Positions 30,908-48,774 of a DNA stretch of 64,000 bases are shown here, piece after piece. The stretch's first letter is position 1. Each line of letters begins with the position of its first letter. Source of the stretch: an uncultured delta proteobacterium (lineage in GTDB: Bacteria; Desulfobacterota; WTBG01; CAIYCZ01; CAIRTM01). The position numbers were made by a program, and so were the translations under genes. The notes beneath the pieces were generated by a model. It saw only the letters and a program-made list of their open reading frames with translations, did not search any database and was not told where the DNA came from. Location of the stretch: assembly GCA_963804955.1 (NCBI GenBank), contig CAWDSQ010000007.1, positions 224,001 to 288,000 on the forward strand, read 5' to 3'.

Positions 30908-31465
30908 ATGAAGTGCCTGTACTGCGCCGAGGAGATCAAAGACGAGGCGAAGCTGTGCCGGTTCTGCGGAGCGCGCCTGTCTGACGGCCAGTGGCAGCCT
31001 CCTTCCGCACCGGCGGGAGCCGCAGGCCGGCGCAGCTTCACCATGCTCACCACGGGCTGGCTGCTGGCGCTGTCCGGTGCGTGGATGCTGGTCATGTGCA
31101 ACTCCCCGGTGCCGCTGTTCGGCTCGGTGCGCGGCGGTATCGTCGCTGTGCTGTACAACGGTGTTTTCGGCGTGCTTATGCTGGCCATGGGATATGCTCT
31201 GGCCGGCCGCAAGCCATGGGCTCTTACGGCAACGGCTGCCGCCACTGCCGCCTATACGCTGGACAAGGTGCTTTTTATTTTCGATACTCCCGCGCGGCTC
31301 GCATCACTGAAAGATGGTTCGCAGCTGCTTAATTCCCTGGGCCCGGGAATGGACTCAATGGTTGATCAGGTGGCGGTGGTGATGGCGGCTTCGTTCCTGG
31401 CGGGCTGGTGGGGGCTTGTTATCTATATTTATCTCAAGCGCGGCTATTTCCGGCAGGATGCATAG
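30908..31465 (+). CDS. Zinc-ribbon membrane protein
   Basis: CLYCAEEIKDEAKLCRFCG plus about 4 TM helices. Confidence 0.8.
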   Translation: MKCLYCAEEIKDEAKLCRFCGARLSDGQWQPPSAPAGAAGRRSFTMLTTGWLLALSGAWMLVMCNSPVPLFGSVRGGIVAVLYNGVFGVLMLAMGYALAGRKPWALTATAAATAAYTLDKVLFIFDTPARLASLKDGSQLLNSLGPGMDSMVDQVAVVMAASFLAGWWGLVIYIYLKRGYFRQDA

Positions 31466-31527
31466 CTCACATCGGGTGGGTGAAACTCAATATTTAGGAA
31501 TTAAGTAAAAAAAGTTCCTCGCCCCCG

Positions 31528-31736
31528 GAGCCTGTGTCGCAATTGATTTATTTGGTTATCTCCAATGCTGAACCTGTATGTGGTCGTTAATTTCATCGCA
31601 AAATTTTGTCATTTCGAAGGAGCGGAGCGACTGAGAAATCTTAAGCACATGCAAAGATCTCTCCCGCAGTCTGCCCTGAGCGAAGTCGAAGGGGTCGAGA
31701 CATGAATATAAAAACAGAGCTTTCGTTCAGCCACTA
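31528..31736 (-). mobile_element. Composite MITE remnant
   Basis: GAGCCTGTGTCGCAATT end at 31528; 31607-31736 is the reverse complement of the outer element at 56307-56619. Confidence 0.7.
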
Positions 31737-31841
31737 TATAGCTCCGGGCTGCTGGAGAAGGGCCTCCGTACAGGCAAAAACAGCATCACGATTCGCTTCA
31801 CGAAGAGAGATATTCTGGGGTATGGATACACTGCCATAAAA

Positions 31842-33374: not shown

Positions 33375-33612
33375 GGCATCTCCTGACAGATACAGGCACC
33401 GGCGATTCAAGAAGTACGAAATCCGGCAGCAACTCACTGTGGAATATTCTACATAAGGATATAGTGCGAGGCCGGCTGTGAGTCAAGGGTACTGCCTGAA
33501 GCAAGTGCCCGCAGAGGGCGGTACGTAAAAACTGAAAAAGCAGCACGCTGCGAAGGTACGGCGTGGTTTCCGGCTTTAAGCGGTATGTACCGCACTGTCT
33601 TTCGGTGCAGCC

Positions 33613-33728
33613 GAAACACGGTTCAGTTTGCATCATAGGGGATTGATACTTGATGGAACATGCTGCAGCCGGATAGGTCACTGTGCTTTAGAACACACCG
33701 GGGCGAGATACCGGCGGTGAAAACGTGA
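33613..33728 (+). pseudogene. Degenerate 3' tail of UmuC/Y-family polymerase (DUF4113-like), copy 1
   Basis: Homologous to 41226-41397 (ACGGTTCAGTTTGCATCAT...GAGATACCGG). Confidence 0.6.
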
Positions 33729-33864
33729 GTCGGTCAGGTATCGCAGGCCGGATATTGATTTTATCATGGACGCCACCCGGGGATTCTGATACATACTACC
33801 TGCTCAAGCACCCGCCTGCCGGGGGAGGGCTTTTGCCTGCTGTACGAAGGGAGATTATACCGCT

Positions 33865-34341
33865 ATGCACCGTAAGATATTTAAAGCAATACTGAAAGCA
33901 ATGCCGAAATCCGGCGGCACGGATACCGGCCGCAGCAGCAGTGCAGACAGAGAGCTGCAGATTGCAACCTGCGCGCTTCTTCTTGACATTGCTCATGCTG
34001 ACAATGAGTTTTCACCGGAAGAGGAGCTGAAAATAGAGCAGCTTATGCGCGGTCATTTCGCGCTGTCGGAAGAGGCTTTTCTTGAAATAAAAAAGCTCTC
34101 CGAGCAGAAGCTCAAAGGCAGCATCGACCTGTGGCAGTTTGCCAAAACAATAAAAGAGCAGTATTCCTACCGGCAAAAAGAGAAAATTATCGAGATGCTG
34201 TGGGCTGTTATTTACACTGACGACTCGCTGCATGCCCACGAAGACTATCTTGTGCACAAGCTTGCAACAGTGCTCAACCTTGATCATGGAAAGCTGATTG
34301 ACGCAAAGATGAAAATCCTCGGGCAAAGAAAGGCGGACTGA
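33865..34341 (+). CDS. TerB family protein
   Basis: ALLLDIAHADNEFSPEE, IEMLWAVIYTD...HEDYLV. Confidence 0.85.
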   Translation: MHRKIFKAILKAMPKSGGTDTGRSSSADRELQIATCALLLDIAHADNEFSPEEELKIEQLMRGHFALSEEAFLEIKKLSEQKLKGSIDLWQFAKTIKEQYSYRQKEKIIEMLWAVIYTDDSLHAHEDYLVHKLATVLNLDHGKLIDAKMKILGQRKAD

Positions 34342-34475
34342 AACAGCAGGTATTGAAAGAGTTGCCCGCGAAAAAGCGGGACGTCACCCTGAATAGTTCC
34401 TGCAATACAGTTAATTCAGCAACGTTCCCTGGCTGCCCCTTGAAGTTATTGATATAGTTATGGGACGCACCCTGG

Positions 34476-35081
34476 TCATTCCCTGCCGTCATTCACCCTG
34501 TCTATATTCTGCCGCTGGCGTATTAAAAAATTGCTGCTCGGAGCCCCGGTGGATGGCGCTGGTGATGCATCCCCTGCAGCCCCCGCTTTATTGGGTGTTA
34601 CTACAGCTTTTGTAACAGTGCTGCTATTTTGACCCGGCGGTTTCAGCTGTGGATCTGACCAAACCCCCAGTGAACGTTTTTGGGCCAGGCTTACAGACAA
34701 ATCGTAGGGATGTTTTTTATTTTTCTCCAGTAACGGCCAGGCTAACCCTTTCCGGACAAGCTCCCGGTTAATGGAATCCTGCTTTTTGGAAGAAAAAACT
34801 TCTGCGGTTATGATATTTTCTTGAGAACTGATCATAGTAATTCTGAGCATCTGGTTTAAAGCAAGACTTTCAAGATAGCGCTTTGCCTCAGCCCCGAATT
34901 TTTGTTGAGGCTCCGGAGCAATAATATATGCCAGCTGCACGGTATACTGTTTTCCATTTGCACGTATCAAGAGCGTGTCAGCATCTACCACCGTCTCGCA
35001 GACCGCATTAAAGTTCTCGGCAAAGGCCGGACAGGCCAGGAGCATAATCCCTGCAATAAAGAAAAAATATTTTTTAAGCAT
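34476..35081 (-). CDS. Thermonuclease (SNase) family protein, exported, catalytic motifs degenerate
   Basis: VVDADT, LAYIIAPE..QKFGAEA, INRELVRKGLAW, GVWS. Confidence 0.8.
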   Translation of the reverse strand: MLKKYFFFIAGIMLLACPAFAENFNAVCETVVDADTLLIRANGKQYTVQLAYIIAPEPQQKFGAEAKRYLESLALNQMLRITMISSQENIITAEVFSSKKQDSINRELVRKGLAWPLLEKNKKHPYDLSVSLAQKRSLGVWSDPQLKPPGQNSSTVTKAVVTPNKAGAAGDASPAPSTGAPSSNFLIRQRQNIDRVNDGRE

Positions 35082-35178
35082 ACTAATCTCTCCCCTGGTA
35101 GTGTTCTTAATGTCGTCAGCACACCAGCGCCACAGGCTATGTTCCCTGAAAAAGGCAGCCAATCAAGCCACCCTCTAT

Positions 35179-35344
35179 GAGATTGTGTCGCAATTAAAAA
35201 AAGATGTCATCTCGACCAAAGGGAGAGATCTTTGCCTGAAGCAAAAGCAAAGCCTTAAGATTGCTGCGCGGTGGCGCAACCTGCGGTCTCACCGCCTGCG
35301 GCGGATTCGAAATGACAGTACAAAACTAATTATGACACAGCCTC
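35179..35344. mobile_element. MITE copy 1, TSD TAT
   Basis: GAGATTGTGTCGCAATT...AATTATGACACAGCCTC flanked by TAT/TAT. Confidence 0.8.
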
Positions 35345-35970
35345 TATGCTGGCGGTTGCTGCCTGCCTCCCCGCCACCGGCTCGAACCATCGCATGTCTC
35401 TTCTTGTTTAATAGGGTCAAAGTCAGGCTGCCGTCAAGGGCTTCATTGATATTTTCGGCATTATTGCAATAAATCTGAATGAGTTTCCGGCCATTGCTGC
35501 TGTGGTTTTGAGTAAAGAAAGGCGGCCTGAAACAGGCATTCATTGACAAAAAAAAACCGGCTGCAACAACCGCCGGCCAAAACACCTGAAAAACAGTGCT
35601 GTGGGGGTGTTGAAAAACCCCATTAAGTCATTCTGAGCGCAGCGAAGAATCTCTATCTTTTTGAATTTTCTAAGCCCGAATGGGACCTTCACTTTGCAGA
35701 TGCGCTCCTGAAAACCATGGCTATCCCCTGTTTTCCTGTCCGCAAAAGCCGTCACCACCAAAAAAAATCATGAATAAAATTTTTTGCGTGCTATATAGAA
35801 ATCTTAAGCAGCAATGCACGGGCACAAGATAGTGCGCTAAAGACACTTCAGGGTCAGGAGTCTCGTCTGACCTCCGCCCCGCTGTGGAGCACAGAGTTTG
35901 TTGTAAATTTTTTATCATATCTACAAATAGAGTTAAATGAAGTTAAACGTATAAAGCAGAAGAGGGTTCT

Positions 35971-37002
35971 ATGCAGCTAATAAAATCAATATCCCTGCTG
36001 TCTGTGATCGGCTCTCTGTTTCTGTGCTCATCTGCCTTTGCCTATCAATCGGGGAACTTTACGTACACGGTAACAAACCAAACGGTCACAATCACTGGCT
36101 ATTCCGGTCCCGGCGGAGCAGTTGCAATTCCAGATACCATTACCAGCATGCCGGTAAGCGGCATCGGGGATAGTGCGTTTTATTGTCAAACCCGTATGAC
36201 CGGTGTCACCATCCCGAACAGCGTTACGAGGATTGGAGCACAGGCGTTTCGAAACTGCACCGGTTTGACCAGCGTTAGCATACCGGGAAGCGTTACGAGC
36301 ATTGGGACATATGCGTTTCAATTTTGCAGCGGCCTGACCAGCCTTACCATACAAAATGGCGTTACGAGCATTGGCTACAGTGCGTTTGGAAATTGCACGG
36401 CCTTAATAAGCGTAACCATACCGGGCAGTGTGAGAAGCATTGCTGGTTCTGCGTTTTCATACTGCGACAGTTTGAGCGGTGCATATTTTTACGGAAATGC
36501 GCCGGCGATGGGGCCGAATGTTTTCCTTAACTGCGCAGGCGGTTTTACCGTTTACTATACTGCCGGAGCCACGGGGTTTACCAATCCGTGGTATGGCTAT
36601 CCAACGGAGGAGTCTAACCCGCCTCCGTCAACCAGCACCACTGTGCCGGTAGCGACGACAGTGCCAGCAAGCACAACGACGAAGCCGTCCACGTCAACGA
36701 CGTCCGCATCAACGAGTATAAGCACAACATCATCATCGGCTGCTTCATCAACAACTACTACTCCGCCGAAGTCCACCACAACCTCTGCACCGCCGAAGCC
36801 AACCACCTCCACTACCAGTGCCTGCAACGTATCAGGTGATACCGATGGCGACGGTATGCCCGATACGCTCGATAACTGCCCGAATGGTTTCAATCCCAAT
36901 CAGCTGGATGCGAATGGTAACGACATAGGAGATTGCTGCGACCCGGCACCCGGCTGCGGCGGCGACGGACAGGCAACATGTGATACGGTGTGCGGGCAGT
37001 AG
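35971..37002 (+). CDS. BspA-type leucine-rich repeat surface protein with Thr/Ser linker and TSP3-like Ca-binding repeat
   Basis: Signal peptide; repeated VTIPxSVTxIGxxAFxxCxxL; DTDGDGMPDTLDNCP. Confidence 0.9.
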   Translation: MQLIKSISLLSVIGSLFLCSSAFAYQSGNFTYTVTNQTVTITGYSGPGGAVAIPDTITSMPVSGIGDSAFYCQTRMTGVTIPNSVTRIGAQAFRNCTGLTSVSIPGSVTSIGTYAFQFCSGLTSLTIQNGVTSIGYSAFGNCTALISVTIPGSVRSIAGSAFSYCDSLSGAYFYGNAPAMGPNVFLNCAGGFTVYYTAGATGFTNPWYGYPTEESNPPPSTSTTVPVATTVPASTTTKPSTSTTSASTSISTTSSSAASSTTTTPPKSTTTSAPPKPTTSTTSACNVSGDTDGDGMPDTLDNCPNGFNPNQLDANGNDIGDCCDPAPGCGGDGQATCDTVCGQ

Positions 37003-37043
37003 TCGGAGTATGGGGTAACGGATTAATCCTCTGAAGAATCATC

Positions 37044-37082
37044 AAGGCCCAACTACCAGAGATGGTGGTTGGGCCTTTTTTG
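37044..37082 (+). terminator. Intrinsic terminator
   Basis: AAGGCCCAACTACCA-GAGA-TGGTGGTTGGGCC followed by T6. Confidence 0.8.
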
Positions 37083-37111
37083 TAAAAGTCCACAGGAGAT
37101 GTCACTACAGT

Positions 37112-37252
37112 GATGCTCTGAGTCAATGCTATGACCGCAGCAAGGTTCAGTTTGCATCATCTGGGATTGCTAAGCGCAGGAAAATGCTGCAGTCGTATAA
37201 ATCCCCGTGCCACACCGCAAGCTGGAGCGGGATACCGGAGGGAAGGCGATAG
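37112..37252 (+). pseudogene. Degenerate UmuC 3' tail, copy 2
   Basis: Homologous to 41226-41397. Confidence 0.6.
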
Positions 37253-37415
37253 TTAAGGCAGATGGCGCAGGCCGGATAGTGATTTAATCATGGTCTTTAT
37301 ATGCTCTTGAGACCAAGCCGTGCAAGAAGCTATTGTGTTAAACAGCCTCCCTTTTTCTCCCATCCCCTGCAGCCCTGAGGATGAGCCATGAGCAGAGCTG
37401 TGTGCGCCACCTCTG

Positions 37416-37823
37416 CTACAGCACCGCCTGCTGTTTATACAGCGCATTGGGCAGGCACTGCATGGTCGCTTTGATCAGATCTTCCTGCTGGAAAGGTTTG
37501 CTCAGATATCCGTCAAACATGCCGCTTATCCGTTCCGTCACGTCACCGGAGGCATGGCCGGTCATGACCAGCAGCGGAATGTTTTTAACAGCTTTATCAG
37601 TTTTCAAAATGACGACCGCCTCGTAGCCGTTCATCACCGGCATCTGTATGTCCAGCAGAATCAGGTCGGGCGCGCACGCGCGGGCCATATCAACAGCATC
37701 CCGGCCATTAGCTCCCTCGATCAGATCAAAGTCGTACTCATCGTAAAACAATTTGATCAGCTCACGGATATGCGCAGTGTCATCGACAATCAGTATGCGC
37801 GGCTTTCCAGACATTGCAGTCAT
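37416..37823 (-). CDS. Single-domain response regulator
   Basis: ILIVDD, LLDIQMPVMNG, MTG, SKP. Confidence 0.92.
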   Translation of the reverse strand: MTAMSGKPRILIVDDTAHIRELIKLFYDEYDFDLIEGANGRDAVDMARACAPDLILLDIQMPVMNGYEAVVILKTDKAVKNIPLLVMTGHASGDVTERISGMFDGYLSKPFQQEDLIKATMQCLPNALYKQQAVL

Positions 37824-38091
37824 AGCAGTCCCCTTCTTTCATTGGATTAACTCTACAGAAGTACAACCCTGTCCTTCGTGCAAAAAAACCCCTTCCTGAA
37901 GCTGAAAAAAGGCCGGCTGTGACATACATTTTCACTACCGGCAGTCTCTGATTATTCAGCACCTGTGCTGTCTGCCGTTATGCCCTCATGCGCTCTTTTC
38001 GGTTGTCTGCGACGCTGCGTTTCTCTGCATGTTTTCAATACAGAGAGCACCTCCGGCCATAGAGAACAAAACATGTTTTATTCAATTTTTA

Positions 38092-38108
38092 TTACATATA
38101 CTGTGCCA
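38092..38108 (-). promoter_or_regulatory. Possible sigma54 promoter
   Basis: Minus strand TTGGCACAGTATATGTA; the -12 element deviates from TTGC. Confidence 0.3.
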
Positions 38109-38506
38109 ACAACAATGCCGTCTTTGCTTGCAACTCCATTGACAATAAAAAATTTAAAAATCATTCTAAATTAAATGATTTTTTTTGAAAAATATCTGGA
38201 AGGATTCTTTTTCAGTCCTGAGAAATGATGGCTAAAGCCGGCATCTATTCAAAATGAGTAATAATTGGCAAATAAAATTACTCATAATGAATACGACATG
38301 CTGCTGTAAAAAACCGTATCTCTCTCCATCAAAAAACAACAGTACAAAACAGCCCCCCGAGATGTGAACTGAAAAGCCGGCCACGACAGGTCAGGCCGGA
38401 GGGCAGCCAGAGGCCCGATGGTTTACATACTGTTCCGGCAGGTGCAGGCGGCAACAAGGCAAGACCGGGGAGGGGCAAGGCTGCGAAAATTCCAAACTGC
38501 TAAGCT

Positions 38507-38869
38507 TTACTGGAACGCAAGGGATACTTCCGGATTTCTTTTAACAAGCTGGCGGATCATGATGTCGCTTAATATACTCGTGAACTTTATGCCGCCTGTT
38601 ACCTTATATGGGCTTTCCTTTACCCACATGACTTCGGCCTCAACAGGAATATGCAGGATCGTGTTTGGTATGGAAATTTCCATTACAAGAACAACTCCGC
38701 GCTTAATGCTTTCAGTCTGCGGAAAGTTTACAGTCGCACCGCTTGAGCTCAGATTTATAATCCGGCATTCATACTGCCGCGTGTCCTGTTCCCTGATGGA
38801 GCAGCGCGTTTTGAGGTTAACATCAAAACGAGCCTTGGCGCGCATATGTGCATATGAAGATTTTCCCAT
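38507..38869 (-). CDS. PilZ domain protein
   Basis: RAKAR (RxxxR) and NLSSSG motifs. Confidence 0.85.
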   Translation of the reverse strand: MGKSSYAHMRAKARFDVNLKTRCSIREQDTRQYECRIINLSSSGATVNFPQTESIKRGVVLVMEISIPNTILHIPVEAEVMWVKESPYKVTGGIKFTSILSDIMIRQLVKRNPEVSLAFQ

Positions 38870-39458
38870 ATTTTAATTGTTCCTGTGCCGATTTTAAATT
38901 GTATGTAATAAAAAGTAAAAATGCAGACTAAAAGAGGTCTGCCCGGACAACATAGCCTGCTCTGTTTTTTATCCGACATCTGCCTGTGGGACGAAGAATA
39001 GAAAAAAACACCCCATAAAGCAATAGCACCAGAGGCTATTATTTAGGCACTAAGGGGCCTGAGGAGCGGGGGCAGAAAAAATATTGCCAATCATGTCTGT
39101 TGCGGGCCTGAACCGGTGCCTGCATTTCGGGCGAGACATTCCCGAACCGGCATTACGAGATTTACAGCCCTTCGAATATTTTGAACAAAACGATAAAAAA
39201 GAGCGGCTGTGCGTGTCGTGCACATCCGCCCTGTATCATCTGACTCTTTTGATGCCGATTTAAAATACCTGCACCCGGTTTTCCACCTGCAAATGCGGCA
39301 CCCGTTTGAACTCCTTTGCATTGCTGGCAACAGGCAACTACCGACTTCTGAAATTTTATGTTTAGCCAGAAAGTCAAGAAACAATCAGCGGCTGTTGTCC
39401 CCCTATTGTTGTTCGCAGGCCTGATAGTAATTTATGTATGAACGTCCCCTGGTCAGCC

Positions 39459-39752
39459 CTATGCGCCAACTGCGGCACGCAGTTCTCCAACTTTTATTTT
39501 CTTCTGCCCGGCATGCCAGAGGTCGAGTTTTGACTGCATATACAACCAGCTTTCCGGCGTGGTGCCTGTTGCAAGGGCGATTTTTACGGCCATGTCCGGT
39601 GTCACAGGACCCCTGCCGTTTAAAATTGCAGACAGTGTTTTACGCGACGTGCGCAAACGTTTTGCGGCTTCCGTTATCGTAAGTCCCAGGGGGACCAAAA
39701 CATCCTCCCGTAAAACTTCTCCGGGATGTGTGGGTTTGCGTTTGTTAATCAT
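39459..39752 (-). CDS. higA: HigA family antitoxin
   Basis: PTHPGEVLRED, HTH, VTPDMA, WLYMQ. Confidence 0.92.
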   Translation of the reverse strand: MINKRKPTHPGEVLREDVLVPLGLTITEAAKRLRTSRKTLSAILNGRGPVTPDMAVKIALATGTTPESWLYMQSKLDLWHAGQKKIKVGELRAAVGA

Positions 39753-39774
39753 GATGTGTGCTCCTTGAAAATAG

Positions 39775-40053
39775 TCAGTGATAATCCCTGTAATCGACGA
39801 TCACAGCATCTGCCCCTTCAAATTGAAAAGTAACCCGCCAGTTGCCGTTTACCCGGACCGACCAGGAGTCCTTCTCTTTGCCCGGCAGCCGGTGCAGTTT
39901 AAAGCCGGGCAGATTCATGTCCTCGGGGCATGCTGATGCGTCCAGGCGGTCAAGTATGCGGGCCAGCCTGGGGGCATGGTCCGGCATTATTTTACTGCAG
40001 TCATCATGGTGGAAAAACTTTTCCAGCCCTTTATGCCTGAATGATTTAATCAT
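39775..40053 (-). CDS. higB: HigB-like (RelE/ParE superfamily) toxin
   Basis: MIKSFRHKGL, PGFKLH, WSVRVNGNWRVTF, DYH; operator-like palindrome TGTAAC-N7-GTTACA at 40070-40088. Confidence 0.92.
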   Translation of the reverse strand: MIKSFRHKGLEKFFHHDDCSKIMPDHAPRLARILDRLDASACPEDMNLPGFKLHRLPGKEKDSWSVRVNGNWRVTFQFEGADAVIVDYRDYH

Positions 40054-40261
40054 GTCTCCATATATAACATGTAACCTAATGCGTTACAAGCAGTTTTAGC
40101 AATTGCCAGTGTATGCTGCTGTTGGCATGCGGATCAGCATGAAAACTGTGCATAGCGCGGATAGTAAAAACAAAGCGTGCTGACACCTGTTCTTGTTTTT
40201 TCGTTCTATGGTTTTCCCGATGGATGTTCCCGGTTGTTTTTTAGACCCACTAAAATACAGG

Positions 40262-40289
40262 TTGCATAATATATAAAAACTTATATAAT
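40262..40289 (+). promoter_or_regulatory. TA promoter with overlapping operator
   Basis: TTGCAT...TATAAT with internal IR TATATAA-AAAC-TTATATA. Confidence 0.5.
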
Positions 40290-40296
40290 TGAAAAT

Positions 40297-40872
40297 ATGA
40301 ATACTGTCGTGAAAGCACTTAAGTTCATTGGGTCGAGTCTGGACGATCTACGGAATTTCCCGGATGAAGCCCGGCGGGCTGCCGGATTTGAGTTTCATGC
40401 GGTTCAAAGCGGTTTTGATCCAAACGACTGGAAGCCCATGCAGGCCATCGGCCCCGGCGTAAAAGAGATTCGTATTCATGTGCTGGGCGAGTGGCGCGTT
40501 ATCTATGTAGCTTAGCCAACAACCACCCGCATAGAGCCTGTGTCGCAATTTACTTTGCTGTCATCTCGACCGAAGGGAGAGATCTTTGTAGTAAGTAAAA
40601 TCAAGGGGCTTAAGATTTCTCACCGCCTGCGGCGGATTCGAAATGACATTAATAAATCAATTGTGACACAGCCTCATAGCGGGGGGGGGATTTCGCTAAA
40701 GCGAAATCAAAAAACACATAGTGTTTATGTTGCCTTTTTCAGAAACGCATGTTTCTGAAATCAGTTCAGCGACGCAGTTTATGTGCTGCACGCATTCAAG
40801 AAAAAAAGTCAAAAAACGAGCCGCCAGGATATCGAACTGGCGCGTCAAAGGTACAACCGCATTGGAGGTTAA
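40297..40872 (+). pseudogene. RelE/Gp49-like toxin interrupted by a ~250 bp insertion
   Basis: ...GVKEIRI...WRVIYVA stops at 40513; FSDAVYVLHAFKKKSQKT...ELARQR resumes near 40765. Confidence 0.85.
40534..40675. mobile_element. MITE copy 2, TSD ATA
   Basis: GAGCCTGTGTCGCAATT...AATTGTGACACAGCCTC flanked by ATA/ATA. Confidence 0.85.
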
Positions 40873-40876
40873 AGTA

Positions 40877-41161
40877 ATGAACGATGACATTATTAAATCT
40901 TCCGGCAGCGTTTTTGCTGATCTCGGTTTTCCACCGGATGAAGCCGCTATTCTTCAGATGCGTGCCGACCTTATGGCTGATCTGCGCAAACTCATCAAAG
41001 CGAAAAAATTAACGCAGGCCAAAGCGGCAACAATTTTCGGGGTGACGCAGTCCAGGGTATCAGATCTCATGCGCGGCAAATGGGAGAGATTCAGTCTTGA
41101 AATGCTCATTACGCTTGCAACAAAGGCGGGCATGCATGTCAGCTTGAAAACAGCGGCATAA
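40877..41161 (+). CDS. XRE/HTH antitoxin
   Basis: SSGSVFADLGF, LTQAKAA, QSRVSDL, FSLEML. Confidence 0.9.
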   Translation: MNDDIIKSSGSVFADLGFPPDEAAILQMRADLMADLRKLIKAKKLTQAKAATIFGVTQSRVSDLMRGKWERFSLEMLITLATKAGMHVSLKTAA

Positions 41162-41225
41162 CGCTGGCTTCAAAACAAAGGGCGCTGACCCCTGTTCTTG
41201 TTTTTGCTGAGCGGAGAGGGAATTT

Positions 41226-41397
41226 ATTAGATCAAAAAGCCATGATGCAGGCAATAGATTCCCTGAATCAACGCTATGGCCGCAACACGGTTCAGTTTGC
41301 ATCATCGGGCATAGATAAGCGCTGGAAAATGCTGCAGTCGCAAAAATCGCCGTGCTTTACCACATGACGGGGCGAGATACCGGCTGTGAAGGCATGA
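41226..41397 (+). pseudogene. UmuC 3' tail (DUF4113-like), copy 3, best preserved
   Basis: Translates as MMQAIDSLNQRYGRNTVQFASSGIDKRWKMLQSQKSPCFTT*RGEIPAVKA*. Confidence 0.75.
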
Positions 41398-41433
41398 GAC
41401 AGACAGGCGGTGCAGGCCAGATAGTGATTTATG

Positions 41434-41536
41434 TATGAACGCCCCGCAGTCCTACTCAAACAATTCAACTAATTCAACAACGTTAAGTTCCTAAAAAATT
41501 TTCTTGAAAAGCATTAAATACAACCGTCCCCTTTTA
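41434..41536 (+). repeat. ~103 bp direct repeat, copy A
   Basis: Near-identical to 46422-46525. Confidence 0.85.
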
Positions 41537-41602
41537 GATGTTTACAGCCAATTTCTGCAACCTGGGGGGGGGAGGGCGTTTGTGTACTTTGTAGGATGGC
41601 CC

Positions 41603-42723
41603 CTAAGTGCCGTCATTCTCAACAAGTGAATAGCTTGTGCTTCTGCCTCCTGCGGGATCCTTCTTCAGCAGGTTCTGTTTCACAAGGTCATCAATATCGC
41701 GACCGGCAGTATCCTGAGAACATTTTGTGATTTTTGCCCATTTTGACGACGTGAGTTTTCCTTCGAATCCATCAATCAATAGATTGAGCATATGTCGTTG
41801 GCGATCGTTCAACGGCTGCTGCGCAAGTTTTTTCCAAAGAGTTGCTTTGCGGATGACATTTGCCAATATGGTCTCGGCGCCATCGAACGCTCGATTGAGG
41901 CAGCTCAGGAACCAATCGAGATATTCCGTGATATCAAGATCGCCTTTCTGCATTTCTTCCAGACGAGTCGTAGTATTTTCCCTGTTCTGCCTTTATCTGG
42001 GCAGAGATGCTGTAAAAGCGCTGAGCGCTGCGCTCTGAGCGAGCCAGCATCATGTCAGCGAGCGCGCGACCGATGCGACCGTTTCCATCGTCGAAGGGAT
42101 GAATGGTCTCAAACCAAAGATGCGCTGTGGCGGCTTTAAGAATGGGATCGACATTGGGTTGCTCTGTATTAAACCACTTTATGAACGCACCCATTTCTTT
42201 ATCGATACGCGTTGCGGCAGGCGCTTCGTAGTGAACATGTTCGCGTCCATAGGGGCCGGAAACAACCTGCATGGGCCCGGATTCAGCCGTTCGCCATTTG
42301 CCGACAGTAATCTTCAAAAGGCCGCTGTATCCTGTCGGGAACAATGCTGCGTGCCAACCGAAGAGCCTCTCTTTTGTAATCGGTTTATCGTAGTTCTGTG
42401 TTGCATCGATGATCATTTGAACAACACCATCGACATTTCTGTCTGACGGTGTCAGTGCGCCGATATCGACGCCAAGCCGCCGCGCGAGAGAAGAACGAAC
42501 CTGATCCCGATTGAGCTGCTGCCCTTCAATTTCGCTGGATTTTACGACTTCCTCCGTCAGGGTGTCGCAAAACGGCTTCGTCGCGCAGCTTGATGCCGAA
42601 AGCCTCTATGCGCCCAAAGAGCTGCCCTTGCCGATAACGTACAGCAGCGAGTTTTTGTGCAAGATGGTCGTTATCCCAACGAAAATGGGGCCAATCGGCT
42701 CTTTGATATATGTAGGTAGTCAT
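41603..42723 (-). CDS. Fic family protein with DUF4172-type N-terminus (frameshifted)
   Basis: YIYQRADWPHFRWD; HPFDDGNGRIGR; C-terminal wHTH (SQDTAGRDI, GGRSTSY). Confidence 0.88.
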
Positions 42724-43062
42724 AATCTCCGCACCTTTCGCGTAGATTATAGCACTTTTTCTCCGCATAAGCAATCATATTCGCCGCATATATTGCGGAG
42801 AATAAAGCGGCTAATCTCCGCAATTGATTGATCCTTGCTTTGGGCTGGGCAGACTAGAGATGAGGGTTGTTCAATACAAAGTTTGCCGCAGGAAGCACTT
42901 CCTGGGTGGGGGGATTTAGTAAGTGGTTGCCTGCTCTAACTCCCGCACGTTGTGCAAAATATGTATTCAGGAGCTGCGGAAAAGCTAAGTCAACAACGTC
43001 CCCCTAGTTAGACCTTTCTGCTCTATGTTAGTAGATGATAAAACCCTTTTTCAAATACCCCT

Positions 43063-44061
43063 TTACAGCCGGTTGCGACGTCTGGCTGAATGCCGATCCA
43101 TGCGCGAATGTTCGTCATCCTGCTTCCTGCCTGCGGGCTTTGCAAAAGCTGCAAGGTGCAGTATGTGCCCCTGGTGCTCAAAGGCAAACCCGATCACCGA
43201 GTCCGATTCAAGCCGTATGTCTTCACCCTCAGATACGGATTTGCGATGCTCTGCTGTTGCATCTGCCATGCCGGCGATAAACTGCCTTGCTGCGTCACCA
43301 TGAGATCCTTCAAGCTTCAGATCAGGATCATACCAGTCCGTGGCATCAAGGGCGTAGCTCTTCACAAGCTTTGCAAACACCTTCCCGAACGTGTCGGGTC
43401 CGGCAAAGCTGTCAAGGCCTGCAACTTTCCCGTTTATCAGAAATACAGCACCGGCCTGATTTTCGGCCCTGGTAAAGTTTTGCAGGTAGTCTTCAAGGGA
43501 AATTCTGTCCTTTTCGTAAATTTCTGACATGGCCATGCTACCGGATACGGCCTTCCTGCGCCGCGCCTTCTTGTCTATGGAATTCCATATCTCTCCCTGG
43601 TCAGAACAATAGGAGGCATTAATTTTGAGCGAGTGGTTTACGTGAACGGCCTTCTCCGCCCTGATATTCGGACAGAGCAGGCGCTCATGGCTGAAAAACT
43701 TGCCGGAGGCGTAGGACCACCGGCCCTGTTCCACGCAGCTCACCGGGATTATCACCTTTGACATGGCAGCGATGAGAATGGTGGCGTTGACGATACGGTT
43801 CTGCTTGGCCCCTACCAGCTCTTCGCCGTCCAGGATGAGCACCTGCTTGCTTGCCTTATTGATCACCTGCAGCTCAGGCACTGAGCCTCCCGTGCTCACC
43901 TCTCCAACTTCGATGAGCCCGCCCTGCAGCGCCTCGTCAAGAAGCAGGTAGTCGGCCTGTTCCGTACCACTGGTCAAAAGCGGCACCATGCTCAAATTTT
44001 TATAGGCTTGAGCCGGCCCCGTGGTGATGGTTGTGATATAGGTTTTAAGACTTTCGTTCAT
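43063..44061 (-). CDS. ARPP-1/DUF6569-like protein
   Basis: GSVPEL, LDGEELVGAKQNR, PVSCVEQGRW, SDQGEIW, SYALDA; family assignment from recall. Confidence 0.75.
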   Translation of the reverse strand: MNESLKTYITTITTGPAQAYKNLSMVPLLTSGTEQADYLLLDEALQGGLIEVGEVSTGGSVPELQVINKASKQVLILDGEELVGAKQNRIVNATILIAAMSKVIIPVSCVEQGRWSYASGKFFSHERLLCPNIRAEKAVHVNHSLKINASYCSDQGEIWNSIDKKARRRKAVSGSMAMSEIYEKDRISLEDYLQNFTRAENQAGAVFLINGKVAGLDSFAGPDTFGKVFAKLVKSYALDATDWYDPDLKLEGSHGDAARQFIAGMADATAEHRKSVSEGEDIRLESDSVIGFAFEHQGHILHLAAFAKPAGRKQDDEHSRMDRHSARRRNRL

Positions 44062-44099
44062 GGCCTCTCCTTTGACTTTTCCGGTTAATCTTACCTTTA

Positions 44100-44131
44100 A
44101 GAATAGCAGGGCACTGTGTCAGGGAAGGTCA
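44100..44131 (-). promoter_or_regulatory. Candidate WYL-activated promoter of the ARPP-1-like gene
   Basis: Minus strand TGACC-TTCCC-TGACAC-N10-TATTCT. Confidence 0.45.
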
Positions 44132-44219
44132 AAACGAATTAAAAAATATTGTTATTTATTGTAAAAAATTGATATATTTTAATTTCATTGTGGTCTTTTT
44201 TTACGTCAGGGAGGATTTT

Positions 44220-45197
44220 ATGCCACGAGGAGATCAGCTGGCGCGTCAGTGGAAAATTATTCAGACCATAGTCTCGTCAAAAAAAGGCAAAACGGCAACC
44301 GAGCTGGCAACCGAACTCGAAGCAAACCCGCGAACCGTCTACCGCGACCTTCAGGCATTGCAGACAGCGGGGTTTCCGATATACACGGAAAGAGTGGGCG
44401 ATAAAAATTGCTGGACACTGCTTGATGCCATTAAAAACCAGATCCCGGTCCCGTTCGCATTTACCGAGCTCATGGCTCTGTATTTTTCAACCGATATGCT
44501 CAAAGCCCTTCACAATACAATTTTTTATGAAAACCTGGACTCACTGGCTAAAAAAATAAAAACCATCCTGCCTCCCGAGTCGCACAGATTCCTTGAAAAC
44601 GCGCGCAAGACTTTTTCTGTTCAGAAGAAGCACTATAAGGACTACGGCGGCTTCAAAGAGATAATCAACAAGGCTTCAGATGCCGCGCTGAAGCAGAAAT
44701 GCGTCACACTTGTCTACTGCTCCATGCCGGAGAAAAAAGAGACCCGGCGCACCGTAGATCCCTACCGCATCTGGTTTTTCAATGAGACCTTTTACCTGAT
44801 CGGCTACTGCCACCTGCGCAAGGAGCTCCGCTCTTTTGTGCTCGACCGGGTCAAATCCCTCACCGTTACTGATGAGGAGTTTGTCATCCCTGAAGATTTT
44901 GATTTTGATGCCCTGATGAAGGGCAGCTTCGGCGTTATCACCGGCCCGACTGAATCCGTGCGGATACAATTTGAGAAAGAAGTGGCCGGCTATATTGAAG
45001 AAAAGGTGTGGCACAGCAGCCAGCGCATTAACCGGGCCTCTGACGGGGCAATTATCTTTGAGGCCGACGTTGCAATAAATGAAGAATTTAAAAACTGGAT
45101 TTTAAACTGGGGATCAAACGCGATGGTTCTGGCGCCCGCATCGCTTGTTGCGGAGATTCAGGCAGAGATCGCCAAAATGGCTAACAGGTATAGCTGA
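44220..45197 (+). CDS. HTH-WYL-WCX transcriptional regulator
   Basis: RTVYRDL HTH; VDPYRIW..FYLIGYCHLRKELRSFVLDRV; WILNWG...VLAP. Confidence 0.93.
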   Translation: MPRGDQLARQWKIIQTIVSSKKGKTATELATELEANPRTVYRDLQALQTAGFPIYTERVGDKNCWTLLDAIKNQIPVPFAFTELMALYFSTDMLKALHNTIFYENLDSLAKKIKTILPPESHRFLENARKTFSVQKKHYKDYGGFKEIINKASDAALKQKCVTLVYCSMPEKKETRRTVDPYRIWFFNETFYLIGYCHLRKELRSFVLDRVKSLTVTDEEFVIPEDFDFDALMKGSFGVITGPTESVRIQFEKEVAGYIEEKVWHSSQRINRASDGAIIFEADVAINEEFKNWILNWGSNAMVLAPASLVAEIQAEIAKMANRYS

Positions 45198-45364
45198 TTT
45201 ATGGATGGATGCCCCCAGGATATTTCCTGCAGCACAGATAATTCAACTAATTCAACAACGCCCTTTATGCTCCCAATATGAAGCTAATAAAGAGGGGGAT
45301 GCAGGTAACCCCTATTCCAAGTGGCCACGACTAGGGGGTTTTGGGTGGCCGCCGGGGTTTATTT

Positions 45365-45775
45365 TTAAATAATACTTAAAATCGGCTCAAGACGCGGGTC
45401 AATGGCTTTCAAAAGTTTGGAAAATTTATCCAGGGATGGCTTTACTTTACCCTGTTCATATCTGCTGTAGGCAGCCGGTGAATTTGAACCAAGATTTTTC
45501 GCAACATCACGTACGCTCAAGTGAAGGCTGCTGCGTTGCTGTTTGAGCGCCAGGGCCATAAGCAGGGTGTCATTGCTGGAGCCCACCATGAAAGTATCTG
45601 CCGCCCCCTCTGTAACGGAAACAGTAAAGCCTTTTTCATCAATGATTGATTCAATGGCATCCTTTGCCATAAAATAAGCATCTTTTCGGCTCTTTCCCTG
45701 AGTATAAATCTTCAGCAAGGGTATTTCTACTGCCCACCATTTACCTGACCGGACAAGTTTGCCTTCTATTTTCAT
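45365..45775 (-). CDS. hicB: HicB-like antitoxin with C-terminal HTH
   Basis: WAVEIP...TQGKSRKDAYFMAKDAI; YSRYEQG. Confidence 0.8.
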   Translation of the reverse strand: MKIEGKLVRSGKWWAVEIPLLKIYTQGKSRKDAYFMAKDAIESIIDEKGFTVSVTEGAADTFMVGSSNDTLLMALALKQQRSSLHLSVRDVAKNLGSNSPAAYSRYEQGKVKPSLDKFSKLLKAIDPRLEPILSII

Positions 45776-45972
45776 GTGCTCTCCTTTCTCTTGTTACCCG
45801 GATTGGCCAGCGCTGTTTTTACGATGGCCTCAGCGGTATATTCATTAATCTCTGTGTGCCGGGGCACCGGAATTTTCTGCTCTCCGTTTGTCCATTTCTC
45901 ATGGCTGCCGCCCTCGCCGTATTTCCACCAGCCAAGTTCTTGCAACCGCTTGATGAGAACTTTCTTTTTCAT
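45772..45972 (-). CDS. hicA: HicA family toxin
   Basis: GW....GGSHEKW, VPRHTEI. Confidence 0.88.
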   Translation of the reverse strand: MKKKVLIKRLQELGWWKYGEGGSHEKWTNGEQKIPVPRHTEINEYTAEAIVKTALANPGNKRKEST

Positions 45973-46135
45973 ATTTTATATTGTATACATATTTATATAC
46001 ATTGCAAGTGTAAATAAACCGCTTCATTTTATTAGTGGCTGTTGTCCCGGATAAATTCCGTGAAGTGTCTGTCAAACAGGGGTAAGTTCAGCTGTCCACG
46101 ATTATTGCCTGAAAAACAAAACACCCTTTAATCCA

Positions 46136-46371
46136 GGATACAGTTTAAGAAAGAAGTGGCCGGCTATATTGAAGAAAAGGTGTGGCACAGCAGCCAGCGC
46201 ATAACCCGGGCACCTGACGGGTCAATTATCTTTGAGGCCGACGTTGCAATAAATGAAGAATTTAAAAACTGGATTTTAAACTGGGGATCAAACGCGATGG
46301 TTCTTGCGCCCGCATCGCTTGTCTCGGAGATTCAGGCTGAGATCGCCAGAATGGCTGGAAGGTACAGCTGA
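46136..46371 (+). pseudogene. Second copy of the last 236 bp of the WYL gene
   Basis: Aligns without gaps to 44962-45197 with about 16 substitutions counted by eye. Confidence 0.9.
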
Positions 46372-46421
46372 GGAGATTTGCTAGAAAACGAAACGGACTG
46401 AGCGATTTCAATTTGCTACAA

Positions 46422-46525
46422 TATGAACGCCTCGCAGACCTACTCAAGCAATTCAACTAATTCAACAACGTTATGCTCCCTAAAAAATTTTCTTGAAAAG
46501 GATTAAATAGAACCGTCCCCTTTTA
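46422..46525 (+). repeat. ~103 bp direct repeat, copy B
   Basis: Near-identical to 41434-41536. Confidence 0.85.
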
Positions 46526-46612
46526 CTTAAAGGAACTATTGGCGACAAATCCTTCGGCTTCCTGAGCGGCATCAAGCATGTGTTGAAGTCTTATTCTGTC
46601 ATCAGGCCTCAT
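46523..46612 (-). pseudogene. Truncated HepT/DUF86 toxin (29 codons)
   Basis: [19 protein letters not shown] overlapping the MNT stop; ends at repeat copy B. Confidence 0.75.
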
Positions 46613-46907
46613 ACTGCACCTCGGCCGTACTCAGAATCTCTTTGCGAAAGTACCGGCTTAATTCCTGCGGGGTGCGAAGGTCGGCCTTGTTGCCGAGCAA
46701 ATCGCTGAGTTCATTTTCCATATGGCAAAGAGAAAAAAAACCCGGCAGCATTTCATCGTAAAATTCAACCAGCAGATCAATATCGCTGTCCGGCCTCATC
46801 GCCCCTTTCAGGGCAGAGCCGAAAAGAGATAACCTTTTAATGCCATTGCGCCGGCAGAATTCAATGAGCCGGTCACGCGAAATTCGCTGATCGATTATGT
46901 TCGACAT
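46602..46907 (-). CDS. MNT minimal nucleotidyltransferase antitoxin
   Basis: LFGS...[18 protein letters not shown]. Confidence 0.9.
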
Positions 46908-47060
46908 ACATGCCTCGCCATTAATTTAGAGGGGTCCGGGTATCCACCCCTGGCTAATCAGGGACTCCCTGTTTGCTGTTTATAGACCTCTGCTTTTATT
47001 TCACCGCAAAAATTCCGTTGTTGACACAGTGCACAAACTCCCCCTTTTTGCATGTGTATT

Positions 47061-48014
47061 TTACCCCAACTCCTTATATTCTGTCAGCCTTTTAAATCGC
47101 CACTCCAGCCCGTCCATGCGGGGATAATATTTTTTATCCCTCGGCAGGATGATGGGCTTTTTATCCAGATCGAGCAATTCCTGGTAATCGCGGTTGCGTT
47201 TGTCGAGAAGCTTTGAAACATGCCACTTCAAATCCGGGCCGGGGGAAAGGATGTTTTTGTCCAGCGCCCAGTGAAAGCTGGGGGCAAGGGCAATGCCGTT
47301 GCAGGGATCATTGTCGCGTGATTCGGAGAAGGGGATAATATGCGCGGCTTCAACCATGACCGACCCATCGGGCAGGATCACCCGCCAGCCCGAGGCGGCG
47401 CAGCGGTAGTCATATGCTTCGCGCACCACGCGTGAAAACGCCGCATCGCGGACTTTGTCGTTGTAGGTGCTGCAACATTCAGCCACTTTTTCAGGTTCCT
47501 TCAGGCAGTTTTCATATACTGCTATCTGCTGCTCTTCGGCTACAACGGTGCGGATCTGTTCGCGGCTTGCCGGGAACCACCGGTCTATGAGAGTTTGTCG
47601 CAAAATATCGCGATCCGGGGCAGAGGAGATCAGGCTGAACAGATCATCATCAAGGAATGCATATTCAAAATTTTCCGTTATCTGCGATGGGCCGCGCACG
47701 GTTGACAGCGCTGCGACTACAGCCTCGCGGCCGGGAATCGGCTTGAGATGCCAGAAGGATTCCCCTTTGTATAGATGAAAAAATGGAAAATACGGATTGC
47801 AGGCATCGCCTGGCTGCTGCACTGTCTGGAAAAATGATTTAAAAATATCAAGAAGGTTTTGGTTATAGAGGATTTTATTTTCTTTGAGAAACCCTGCCTC
47901 GGCCAGGGCCAGTACGGCCAGCAGCATGACCGGCTTGTGGGGGCTGACATGCTCCCCTGAACGGTTTACATGCAGCTTCGAGAAGGCGTGTATGTAGTAT
48001 TCAAGATCAGGCAT
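47061..48014 (-). CDS. HNH endonuclease with N-terminal SBD-like domain (modification-dependent restriction candidate)
   Basis: SPHKPVMLL, PYFPFFHL..W; RDAAF, EAAHIIP, NGIAL...H. Confidence 0.8.
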   Translation of the reverse strand: MPDLEYYIHAFSKLHVNRSGEHVSPHKPVMLLAVLALAEAGFLKENKILYNQNLLDIFKSFFQTVQQPGDACNPYFPFFHLYKGESFWHLKPIPGREAVVAALSTVRGPSQITENFEYAFLDDDLFSLISSAPDRDILRQTLIDRWFPASREQIRTVVAEEQQIAVYENCLKEPEKVAECCSTYNDKVRDAAFSRVVREAYDYRCAASGWRVILPDGSVMVEAAHIIPFSESRDNDPCNGIALAPSFHWALDKNILSPGPDLKWHVSKLLDKRNRDYQELLDLDKKPIILPRDKKYYPRMDGLEWRFKRLTEYKELG

Positions 48015-48138
48015 GGCAGCTCATGTAATAATGAATATTATTGAACTGTTCTTGTGAAGCAGGAAGAGTATAAAATAGAATAAAAGGCTAAAGCAACTAC
48101 TCTTTTGTTATTTTTAAATAAATCAGTAAAATCTTTGC

Positions 48139-48298
48139 GAGCTGTGAGTTGGGAGTCGTGAGTTGGGAGTTGTGAGTTCGGAGTTCGGAGCGCAGGGGCA
48201 CGGTGCACGTGCCGTAAAGTTCGGAGTTGGGAGTTGGGAGCGTAGGGGCACGGTGCGCGTGCCGTAAAGTTGGGAGTCGTGAGTTCGGAGTTCGGAGT
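48139..48298. repeat. Degenerate GAGTTSG heptamer array with two REP-like hairpins
   Basis: GAGTTGG/GAGTCGT/GAGTTCG units; GYAGGGGCACGGTGCRCGTGCCGTA twice. Confidence 0.75.
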
Positions 48299-48348
48299 AA
48301 AAATTCAGCAGCCGGGAGTCAGAAAAAACAGCCACCTCTCCCCCATCA

Positions 48349-48489
48349 GAGACTGTGTCGCAATTAACTTTGCTGTCATCTCGACCGAAGGGAGAGATCT
48401 TTGTAGTAAGTAAAATCAAGGGCTTAAGATTTCTCACCGCCTGCGGCGGATTCGAAATGACATTAATAAATCAATTGTGACACAGCCTC
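48349..48489. mobile_element. MITE copy 3, TSD TCA
   Basis: GAGACTGTGTCGCAATT...AATTGTGACACAGCCTC flanked by TCA/TCA; interior nearly identical to copy 2. Confidence 0.85.
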
Positions 48490-48629
48490 TCAGTGGCGTA
48501 GGGGGAGAAAACCGGCAAGTTGGAAATTGCTGCACTACGGAGGCAGAAGATTGCTCATTATGGCGGGGACGAATCCCGACTGCAATCGGGACGACCTTCG
48601 GCCTCAGGTTCTGCTCTTACCCTTAACTA

Positions 48630-48662
48630 AAAAAAGCACTTAACCGATGAGGCTAAGTGCTT
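48630..48662 (-). terminator. Terminator of the tRNA operon
   Basis: AAAAAAGCACTTA...TAAGTGCTT. Confidence 0.65.
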
Positions 48663-48670
48663 GAAAAATG

Positions 48671-48747
48671 TGGCGGGGACGACGGGACTCGAACCCGCGA
48701 CCTTCGGCGTGACAGGCCGACGTACTAACCAACTGTACTACGCCCCC
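48671..48747 (-). tRNA. tRNA-Asp(GTC)
   Basis: Cloverleaf GGGGGCG...CGTCCCC-G-CCA, GTTCGA T-loop, anticodon GTC. Confidence 0.95.
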
Positions 48748-48774
48748 GCGTATCATATGCTGTTGTCAAATTTA

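Follow-up and report, generated by a model that had tools for sequence, protein, structure and literature searches.

TIRYT/TIRtron-type terminal repeats at the junctions of a toxin-antitoxin and defence patchwork beside tRNA-Asp

The DNA studied here is a 64-kb stretch (hereafter the window) from an uncultured delta proteobacterium, comprising positions 224001-288000 of a 560-kb contig, C7. The assembly, which we call G000, is 87% complete. From about 31.5 kb of the window to a tRNA-Asp gene, the chromosome is a variable region of small, tightly bounded modules, mostly of toxin-antitoxin (TA) or defence type. An earlier reading of the letters alone (the original prediction) had noticed recurring motifs at the module boundaries. 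By sequence comparison, we identify three of the motifs, M1, M2, and M3, as terminal inverted repeats (TIRs) that belong to three related genes for Y1/HUH transposases, and we take this identity as settled. These genes are of the TIRYT/TIRtron type, relatives of RAYTs that are classified as TnpA-Y1 subclass 2.1. The locus, a TA/defence patchwork next to a tRNA gene, is a further case of this repeat family, and neither an integron nor a new class of system. On balance, we lean towards the view that these non-autonomous TIRYT/TIRtron leftovers shape the seams of the patchwork.

Three motifs had been singled out. The first, TAATTCAACAACG, has five matches in the window when up to one mismatch is allowed. 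All are on the plus strand, all are at places named by the original prediction, and the number is far above the 0.05 expected by chance. The second, of ATGGAYGYC type, is likewise enriched. In the form ATGRAYGYCYC it has four window matches, all plus, where 0.68 are expected; four matches were reached in none of 100 shuffles. The variants at 33766 and 40220 are weaker. The third, YGTCCC(C), carries no information on its own, since its bare form is not enriched (10 window matches of YGTCCCC and 11.65 expected). It is the shared outer end of the TIRs. Longer consensus forms, of 21 nucleotides for M1, 26 for M2, 24 for M3, and 21 for a further motif, M4, were used for a Hamming scan of the window. 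This gave 10 matches, every one on the plus strand, and all between 34404 and 46525; 20 shuffles gave 0-1. Genome-wide, the consensus scan returned 49 matches, compared to 15 in a shuffled genome, with 10 of the 49 in this 15 kb. Other clusters in the genome are at C5:194-210 kb, where M1 and M2 are all on the minus strand, and on contigs C11, C24, C29, and C30. A repeat search found a block of ~103 nucleotides twice (41434-41536 and 46422-46525; 88-96% identical) and four copies of a 34-mer with M1 at its end.

The window was compared with four congeners (G004, G005, G006, and G007), with a family set of 17 genomes, with motif or element loci elsewhere (L-numbers), and with short Logan contigs of public runs, X1-X4 among them. 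In other genera of the family, the M2 core of 22-26 nucleotides is 96-100% conserved, while the flanks are unrelated. A motif scan, taking one genome per species, gave more than 122 loci. The majority belong to Thermodesulfobacteriota, Desulfobacterales, or Nitrospirota; some matches in other groups are due to chance. Among the matches listed, the 21-mer has at least 128 unique instances. A TCCC-like end follows 73 of these, and a transposase gene precedes 14. In those 14 of 128 listed instances, the motif is directly past the stop codon of a gene ending ...GVSTSAISK..., and such genes encode Y1_Tnp (IS200-like) proteins of ~325 amino acids. M2 is found directly past the stop codons of Y1_Tnp genes at L031 and L058 (Pfam E-values of 2e-11 and 8e-11), with an inverted copy upstream. 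The ends are inverted at all three type-B loci. Inverted M1 copies flank intact 335-amino-acid genes in G004 (two copies) and G007, which are all three of the intact type-A loci. A type-A copy in G000 (C20:65070-66022), in three frames, is flanked by inverted M1 in the same way. Also in G000, an intact 233-amino-acid Y1 gene of type C (C30:145770-146470) is flanked by inverted M3. The end types share the outer GGGGACG(T) and differ inside, being A (M1, ...ATTCATTTATTCATGGACGTCCCCT), B (M2, AATTCAACnnAnTCAACAACGTCCCC), and C (M3, ATAGAACCGTCCCCTTTA). At further family loci, nine of 10 have TIRs whose start is GGGGACG or differs from it by one base (GGGGACA in G014), with a variable interior. 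TIRYT-type genes were detected in 14 of the 17 family genomes. The idea of an HUH transposase system with its genes outside the island is thus supported, the motifs being Y1 TIRs and the genes being at C30 (intact) and C20 (in three frames).

All eight full-length proteins scanned matched Pfam Y1_Tnp. Among five type-A, -B, and -C copies checked, HxH is present in four (NVH in G004:C315) and Y-x-x-x-N-P, as YIHLNP or YVELNP, in all five. The nearest NCBIfam model is REP_Tyr_transpos, at 59-80 bits with a cut-off of 80. Five of six proteins have Bac_DnaA_C or HTH_23 matches at residues ~255-320, all of them below Pfam cut-offs (E-values of 5e-4 to 0.03). Alignment showed that this C-terminal HTH-like region is absent from the 233-amino-acid type-C protein.

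TIRtrons have been described as RAYT-like genes with long TIRs, many of which share GGGGWSAS (Di Nocera et al. 2013, PMC3733652). Their TIR families are moderately abundant and occur as single copies, dimers, and clusters (PMC3733652). The proteins of TnpA-Y1 subclass 2.1 were reported to be long, with a Bac_DnaA_C, HTH_23, or HTH_28 tail, and REP (repetitive extragenic palindromic) hairpins to be absent (Quentin et al. 2018, PMC6006769). TIRYT/TIRtron has been equated with this subclass (PMC6006769) and with RAYT group 1 (Bertels et al. 2017, PMC5581495). The likeness to this family is threefold. First, there is a Y1_Tnp core, with HUH and Y-x-x-x-N-P, in a long protein (320-335 amino acids); the C-terminus may also be DnaA_C/HTH_23-like, the matches here being sub-threshold. 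Second, the gene is between long non-palindromic TIRs starting GGGG[AT][CG]. Third, the TIRs are a dispersed family, solo, paired, and clustered. Complete elements are insertion sequence (IS)-like and ~1.1 kb long, with a 320-335-amino-acid Y1 transposase, a putative C-terminal HTH region, and TIRs of 25-30 bp. The original prediction knew of no named system with these sites; PMC3733652 and PMC6006769 provide one. There are also differences. The outer end here is GGGGACGT and agrees with the published consensus, GGGG[AT][CG]A[CG] (PMC6006769, PMC3733652), at the first six positions only; the last two differ. In addition, three end sub-types are here stacked head to tail in one orientation, and they are concentrated in a TA/defence patchwork beside truncated genes. 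We found no mention of such arrangements in the available portions of PMC3733652, PMC6006769, and PMC5581495.

Two better-known groups share part of this description. REP/REPIN-RAYT systems and the BIME (bacterial interspersed mosaic element) mosaics of Gammaproteobacteria have a related transposase, a gene between inverted copies of its own repeat, and short gene-less intergenic derivatives, sometimes in mosaic clusters. In contrast, the repeats here are not palindromic, do not fold, and have no GTAG tag. Copy number is in the tens, not hundreds, and the genes are multi-copy in some genomes, with at least two full type-A copies in G004. The IS200/IS605 elements, such as IS608 and ISDra2, belong to the same transposase superfamily and behave strand-specifically, which would fit the single orientation seen here. 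However, those elements have sub-terminal hairpins, no TIRs, and a transposase of ~130-150 amino acids without an HTH tail. Here TIRs are present, hairpins are absent, and the proteins have 233-335 amino acids. NCBIfam model transpos_IS200 gave 23-28 bits, where the cut-off is 55.

The island copies take the form of solo right-end copies, M1-M2 doublets, and the ~103-nucleotide M1-M2-M3 block, in a single orientation. Reading along the plus strand, a 34-mer (GCAGGCC...ATGGACGCC; 33743-33776), with a weak M1, follows the first of three copies of a umuC fragment. A degenerate M2 at 34404..34429, which is a type-B TIR in right-end orientation, is 53 nucleotides past the TerB stop codon. A degenerate M1 34-mer (37267-37300) follows the second umuC copy. 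At 39385..39459, a GGCTGTTGTCCCCCTATTGTT remnant precedes a 34-mer with a complete M1 (39430-39450). Junction block A (41412..41536) has M1 at 41427-41447, M2 at 41462-41487, and M3 at 41513-41536. A solo M2 outer half (TAAGTCAACAACGTCCCC; 42986..43003) is 60 nucleotides from the ARPP-1 stop codon. Directly past the WYL stop codon is an M1-M2 doublet (45197..45265), and a public contig from run X1 extends from WYL through the doublet into HicB. M4 (GGCTGTTGTCCCGGATAAATT; 46037..46057) is a diverged left-end-type copy that is common to G004, with homology stopping just past it. Junction block B (46422..46525), with M1, M2, and M3, has an outer end that gives the stop codon of a HepT remnant.

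Gene-less units of this kind are found elsewhere. Loci L195 and L199, from one metagenome, have in common only a 132-nucleotide unit (M1...M2; 96% identity), and both flanks are unrelated. Equally, L203 and L191 have only a 73-nucleotide M1-M2 doublet in common (89% identity), again with both flanks unrelated. Such occurrences, as discrete units in unrelated contexts, suggest that M1-M2 doublets are mobile. In the metagenome scan, the 21-mer matched at 23 loci and the 30-nucleotide block pattern at none. Inverted pairs ~1 kb apart are full elements, and those 20-300 nucleotides apart are gene-less mini-elements. One of the latter, a 60-nucleotide type-A pair of left and right ends, is 11 nucleotides before the 132-nucleotide unit of L195. 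Full elements also stack: two of 13 are inserted in another TIRYT gene and one of 13 is in tandem with another. The loci concerned are L176 (G006:C34), L181 (G002:C11), and L173 (G001:C13), with two elements in the 5' part of a TIRYT gene (after residues ~66 and ~51) and one in tandem with a distant relative. An M2-type end is present 85 nucleotides past the right end of the G007 type-A element. Same-orientation arrays occur in other metagenome-assembled genomes (MAGs) at L037, L066, L075, L080, and L083. Between the array copies are HicAB, RelB/PIN, ParE, YafQ, and RhuM genes, and also unrelated genes. Just beyond the TIR outer end there are often tandem duplications, of 10-14 nucleotides or of the whole end, and some left ends are double. 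These duplications were seen at L058, L093, L131, L144, G007:C132, G004:C315, and G000:C30:146463-146500. Repeated cutting and rejoining, or else slippage, may have left this footprint.

How might such units affect the island? In the account that we lean towards, new units would go in next to ends already present in dispensable DNA, moved in trans by a TIRYT transposase. Nicking or recombination at unit ends would then cause local deletions and module replacement. The probable outcome would be 5'-truncated gene tails (three of umuC and one of WYL) and a HepT stump left behind. The units would shape junctions rather than carry cassettes. Co-orientation, stacking, and partial coincidence with breakpoints together suggest such a role, with the ends as possible hot spots for deletion and replacement.

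Turning to relatives, congeners carry the same modules, but on different contigs or differently ordered. A G004 contig ending at tRNA-Asp has in common with G000 the M2 block, M4, HicAB, and HNH_2. A total of 12 breakpoints were examined, and a breakpoint was classed as at a unit if at, or within ~10 nucleotides of, a unit end. The expectation that breakpoints in related genomes would coincide with motifs was partly borne out, in five cases: after M4, inside M1, inside M3 (G000 compared to G004), at the HigBA left edge, and at the HepT truncation. For HigBA, homology with G005 starts at ~39460, 8-9 nucleotides beyond the M1 outer end. Note that the G006 assembly is without the tRNA-Asp/lon locus, and homologies there stop at the ends of open reading frames (ORFs). 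The G005 contig ends 100 nucleotides past the tRNA. One X2 contig is tentatively listed as joining 39373 to 47080. In a k-mer comparison with public runs, the best share of island words was 0.19, and no run reaches half.

Gene fragments are also present at the junctions. The original prediction held that genes are cut at or near the motifs. This applies to the HepT remnant and to four 3' pieces, three of umuC and one of WYL; it does not apply to Gp49, split by an unrelated element described below, and probably not to Fic. The umuC pieces are diverged copies of a 184-nucleotide unit that is the 3' end of umuC (DUF4113, Pfam), all on the plus strand. Copy 1 (33603..33719) has stops, copy 2 is at 37112..37240, and copy 3 (41239..41388) matches DUF4113 with 70 bits and has one TGA; in-frame stops are present in two of the three. 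The tails are 63-78% identical to one another and have differing start points in the gene, with a common downstream sequence plus M1. Intact umuC genes with this tail are present in G004 and G005, and nucleotide homology of copy 3 to these starts near 41206. No intact umuC was found in the 87%-complete G000 assembly, where the sole IMS-domain gene is a complete dinB-like gene at C7:218757. The WYL/WCX 3' fragment (46136..46371, plus strand) is 93% identical to 44962-45197, the last 236 nucleotides of WYL. On the minus strand, the probable HepT 5' remnant (46526..46612) has 29 codons, and its truncation coincides exactly with the outer end of that block B. It had neither a Pfam match nor a six-frame profile match, and only a weak colinear alignment to the N-termini of the genome's three HepT proteins supports it. 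The other half of HepT is absent from the far side of block B. In the case of Fic, public contigs are one base shorter at 41962 and 42566, beside the frame breaks. Because lon, carD, and acrB are also broken, and public contigs differ by single bases, the Fic frame breaks are probably assembly indels.

Several observations weigh against a role for the ends in shaping the seams. Seven of the 12 breakpoints are away from motifs, namely both TerB edges, HigBA right, HicAB left, HNH left, and ARPP-1 left (in G006 and in run X1). Where the umuC and WYL fragments are truncated, no TIR end adjoins them. Therefore, the simple model of transposase-mediated adjacent deletion fails for these fragments, and we rejected it as the source of the gene tails. 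A resident umuC gene as the integration target was also rejected, the dinB-like gene being complete with its own C-terminus. Least well accounted for are the umuC tails, in which the TIR-side end is kept and the 5' loss varies. The junction DNA is without hairpins, whereas Y1 enzymes are known from hairpin substrates. In the 87%-complete G000 assembly no type-B gene was found, and its type-A copy is in three frames. The relationship of strand choice to GC skew fits 10 of 13 loci, which is not significant, and three do not fit. Neither excision joints nor circle joints appear at the motifs in the public contigs, which are short and a weak test, and transposition or nicking was not observed either.

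The next best explanation, though we consider it rather unlikely, is that the TIR units are passive: selfish mini-elements that pile up in dispensable spacers. Module gain, loss, and truncation would then have unrelated causes: homologous or illegitimate recombination, for example, or earlier integrase activity at the tRNA. The off-motif majority of breakpoints is as expected in this case, as is the finding that just gene-less 73- and 132-nucleotide units lie between unrelated flanks. Other clusters in G000 (C5:194-210 kb, C11, and C30) are among mixed accessory genes, not only TA/defence genes, and an unrelated miniature inverted-repeat transposable element (MITE) is likewise scattered through the island. 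However, the units are a few percent of the island, and five of 12 breakpoints are within ~10 nucleotides of their ends. The HepT stump stops exactly at a block end, with its other half not beyond the block, and one orientation is kept by all copies over 12 kb. These points speak against the passive reading.

The original prediction itself proposed that modules are added serially, at a common site type, by a recombinase or HUH transposase acting in trans. In the Y1/HUH form of this model, whole modules would be captured in series, as in an integrase-free analogue of an integron. Much of what it noticed is real. The motifs are HUH-transposase ends, all 10 are co-oriented, and similar TA-gene arrays are found in other MAGs. 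Module boundaries are tight around ORFs, with other contexts in congeners. The interval from M4 to the M1/M2 block is 385 nucleotides in G000, including the WYL tail, and ~1.7 kb with two genes in G004. The umuC tails, variable at the 5' end and constant on the TIR side, are also consistent with this model; L058 has a similar pattern, with repeats of a tnpA tail and a right end. We nevertheless regard serial capture as unlikely. No module is bounded by a matched pair of ends. HicAB is between a right-end copy and a left-end-type copy, and the outer ends of both face it; it is therefore outside any element and not cargo. Gene strands are mixed, with eight minus and five plus among the 13 genes scanned, while the motifs are all plus. 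The motif is absent at many module edges, and no circular or excised forms appear in the public contigs, which as noted are a weak test. The evidence does not show capture of whole gene cassettes by the transposase. A related but equally doubtful version is that TIRYT ends are the recombination sites of an HUH-driven, integrase-free system that stacks and swaps TA and defence cassettes, each event being right-end-anchored with variable upstream DNA. The pattern of the umuC tails would fit such right-end-anchored, one-ended copying or capture.

Integrase-based systems were also considered. Integron arrays, including integrase-less attC clusters, resemble the island in having short, tight modules, mostly of single function, with many TA pairs and a same-strand junction sequence. 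They differ in that here there is no IntI or tyrosine recombinase on the contig, no attC-like hairpin, and mixed gene orientation, and in that the junction sequence is a transposon end. As the original prediction stated, no integrase or transposase was found inside the island, either by Pfam among 24 island ORFs or by six-frame Y1_Tnp and Phage_integrase searches. None of the genome's seven Phage_integrase matches is on contig C7. As single-stranded DNA, all eight junction blocks and element ends folded no better than shuffles (z of -0.89 to +2.14), with z of +0.96 to +2.14 for 41405-41545 (both strands), 46410-46535, and 45185-45275. Rfam had no family matching the motifs in the scanned interval (31000-49500), and the GTAG tag is absent from the repeats. 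Folding thus rejects attC or REP hairpins as the identity of the junctions. With no integrase on the contig, and junctions that do not fold, the array is therefore not an integron, in agreement with the view that it lacks attC sites. The integron-like elements at rulB/umuC in Pseudomonas, according to Rhodes et al. 2014 (PMC4542609), have three tyrosine recombinases, insert near the 5' part of rulB, and have a GAT repeat. On that description, they share with the island a umuC-family gene tied to variable cargo. We rejected them as the identity of this locus, where only the last 40-60 umuC codons are present and there is no recombinase.

It is very improbable that the region is a decayed tandem array of integrase-type islands at tRNA-Asp, each with umuDC near one end: although the island abuts the tRNA-Asp 3' end, with a diverged partial copy 65 nucleotides off and other DNA in that interval in G004 (~1.6 kb) and G007 (~2.4 kb, with one gene), and although three diverged umuC tails imply at least three donor segments, the 560-kb contig has no tyrosine recombinase and the TIR identity of the motifs is left unexplained. 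In a tRNA-integrated genomic island, an integrase beside the tRNA and direct repeats of the tRNA 3' end on either side of the island would be expected, and here the sole tRNA-Asp fragment is the one beside the tRNA. A tRNA-Asp att duplication bounding the island was looked for and not found; there is no further tRNA-Asp fragment inside the island or at its left end. The interval between the tRNA and its partial copy is a second, smaller variable slot.

The accessory modules of the island span 33865-48014, and Pfam confirmed the original list, from TerB to HNH, except for HepT. In order, these are TerB (33865-34341), SNase (34476-35162), LRR_5 (35971-37002), a response regulator (37416-37823), PilZ (38507-38869), HigA/HigB (39459-40053), the RelE-like Gp49 (40297-40515, plus HTH_37 to 41161), Fic (41603-42774, in three frames), ARPP-1 (43063-44061), WYL (44169-45197), HicB/HicA (45365-45972), MNT (46602-46907), and HNH_2 (47061-48014). 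Of the predicted MNT-HepT pair, MNT is thus present, and HepT is not present as a gene, there being just the 29-codon remnant, which Pfam does not match. On the right, the border (48561..48747, minus strand) comprises tRNA-Asp (48671-48747) and the diverged partial copy of its 3' half (48561-48602). The tRNA-Asp and then a tRNA-Val close the region, and these were the only RNA families found in the Rfam scan.

The left part of the variable region is 31454..33599. Position 31453/31454 is a breakpoint of a 34.7-kb inversion, since G000:C7:220737-255453 (to window position 31453) is inverted compared to G004, G006, and G007. In those three congeners, an aminotransferase/Zn-ribbon block abuts the dinB-like gene. 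MITE copies are present at both inversion breakpoints (C7:220840-221200 and window ~31530-31700). Pfam assigns no family to an ORF of 531 amino acids (31842-33437, minus strand). G004 has three copies of this ORF, and one of these sits 1.6 kb from a type-A TIRYT element (G004:C315).

The MITE that splits the Gp49 toxin gene (40509..40762; TIR TGTGTCGCAATT...) is unrelated to the TIRYT ends. Further copies are at 35168-35358 and 48338-48503. MITE ends are TGTGTCGCAATT and AATTGTGACACA, copies are 150-190 nucleotides long, and they are found on more than 20 contigs of the genome. Gp49 is uninterrupted in G007 and in public contigs of X3 and X4, with 40508 joined to 40763. A 34-nucleotide hairpin-like repeat (AAAACAAAG...CTGTTCTTGTTTTT) is present at two module edges, 40167-40200 and 41172-41205, with 91% identity; it is unrelated to the TIR motifs. 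Tandem 14- and 50-nucleotide repeats (GAGTTGGGAGTCGT...) occupy 48133-48317. Related heptamer arrays (AATTCAACCAAT...-like) are upstream of genes at C19:49507, C30:181074, C20:96763, and elsewhere, and gave false matches in a loose motif scan.

Backbone genes in the rest of the window include cysS, ispF, carD, groEL, acrB, lon, clpX, and clpP. Some genes are split into overlapping or adjacent ORFs: lon (48926-51329), carD (7886-8456), acrB (22561-25629), and the Fic gene. Assembly indel errors are probably behind the split housekeeping genes, and apparent pseudogenes here are not to be trusted. At the far left, the end of an IS110-family transposase ORF (1278-2417) holds a sequence (2283-2327, plus strand) identical over at least 44 nucleotides to 28886-28936 (minus strand), in inverted orientation. 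The pair is probably two IS copies that bracket 26 kb of backbone.

We know of no function shown for TIRYT-type transposases. They are the second largest Y1 subclass, found in 14.9% of strains, according to PMC6006769. Our literature search listed no publication that links TIRYT ends to cassette junctions, though it does not establish absence. The island is a testable case, with three GGGGACG end types, co-oriented, at the seams of a TA/defence patchwork, and with some strain breakpoints and one gene truncation exactly at outer ends. Were right-end-anchored stacking true, it would explain the 5'-truncated umuC and WYL tails, and would amount to a functional integron analogue that is widespread in Thermodesulfobacteriota and Nitrospirota. 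If the ends promote local rearrangement, this would help to explain integrase-free remodelling of such islands. Otherwise, the locus would still be useful as an annotated example, and as a caution that recurring junction motifs need not mean a new recombination system.

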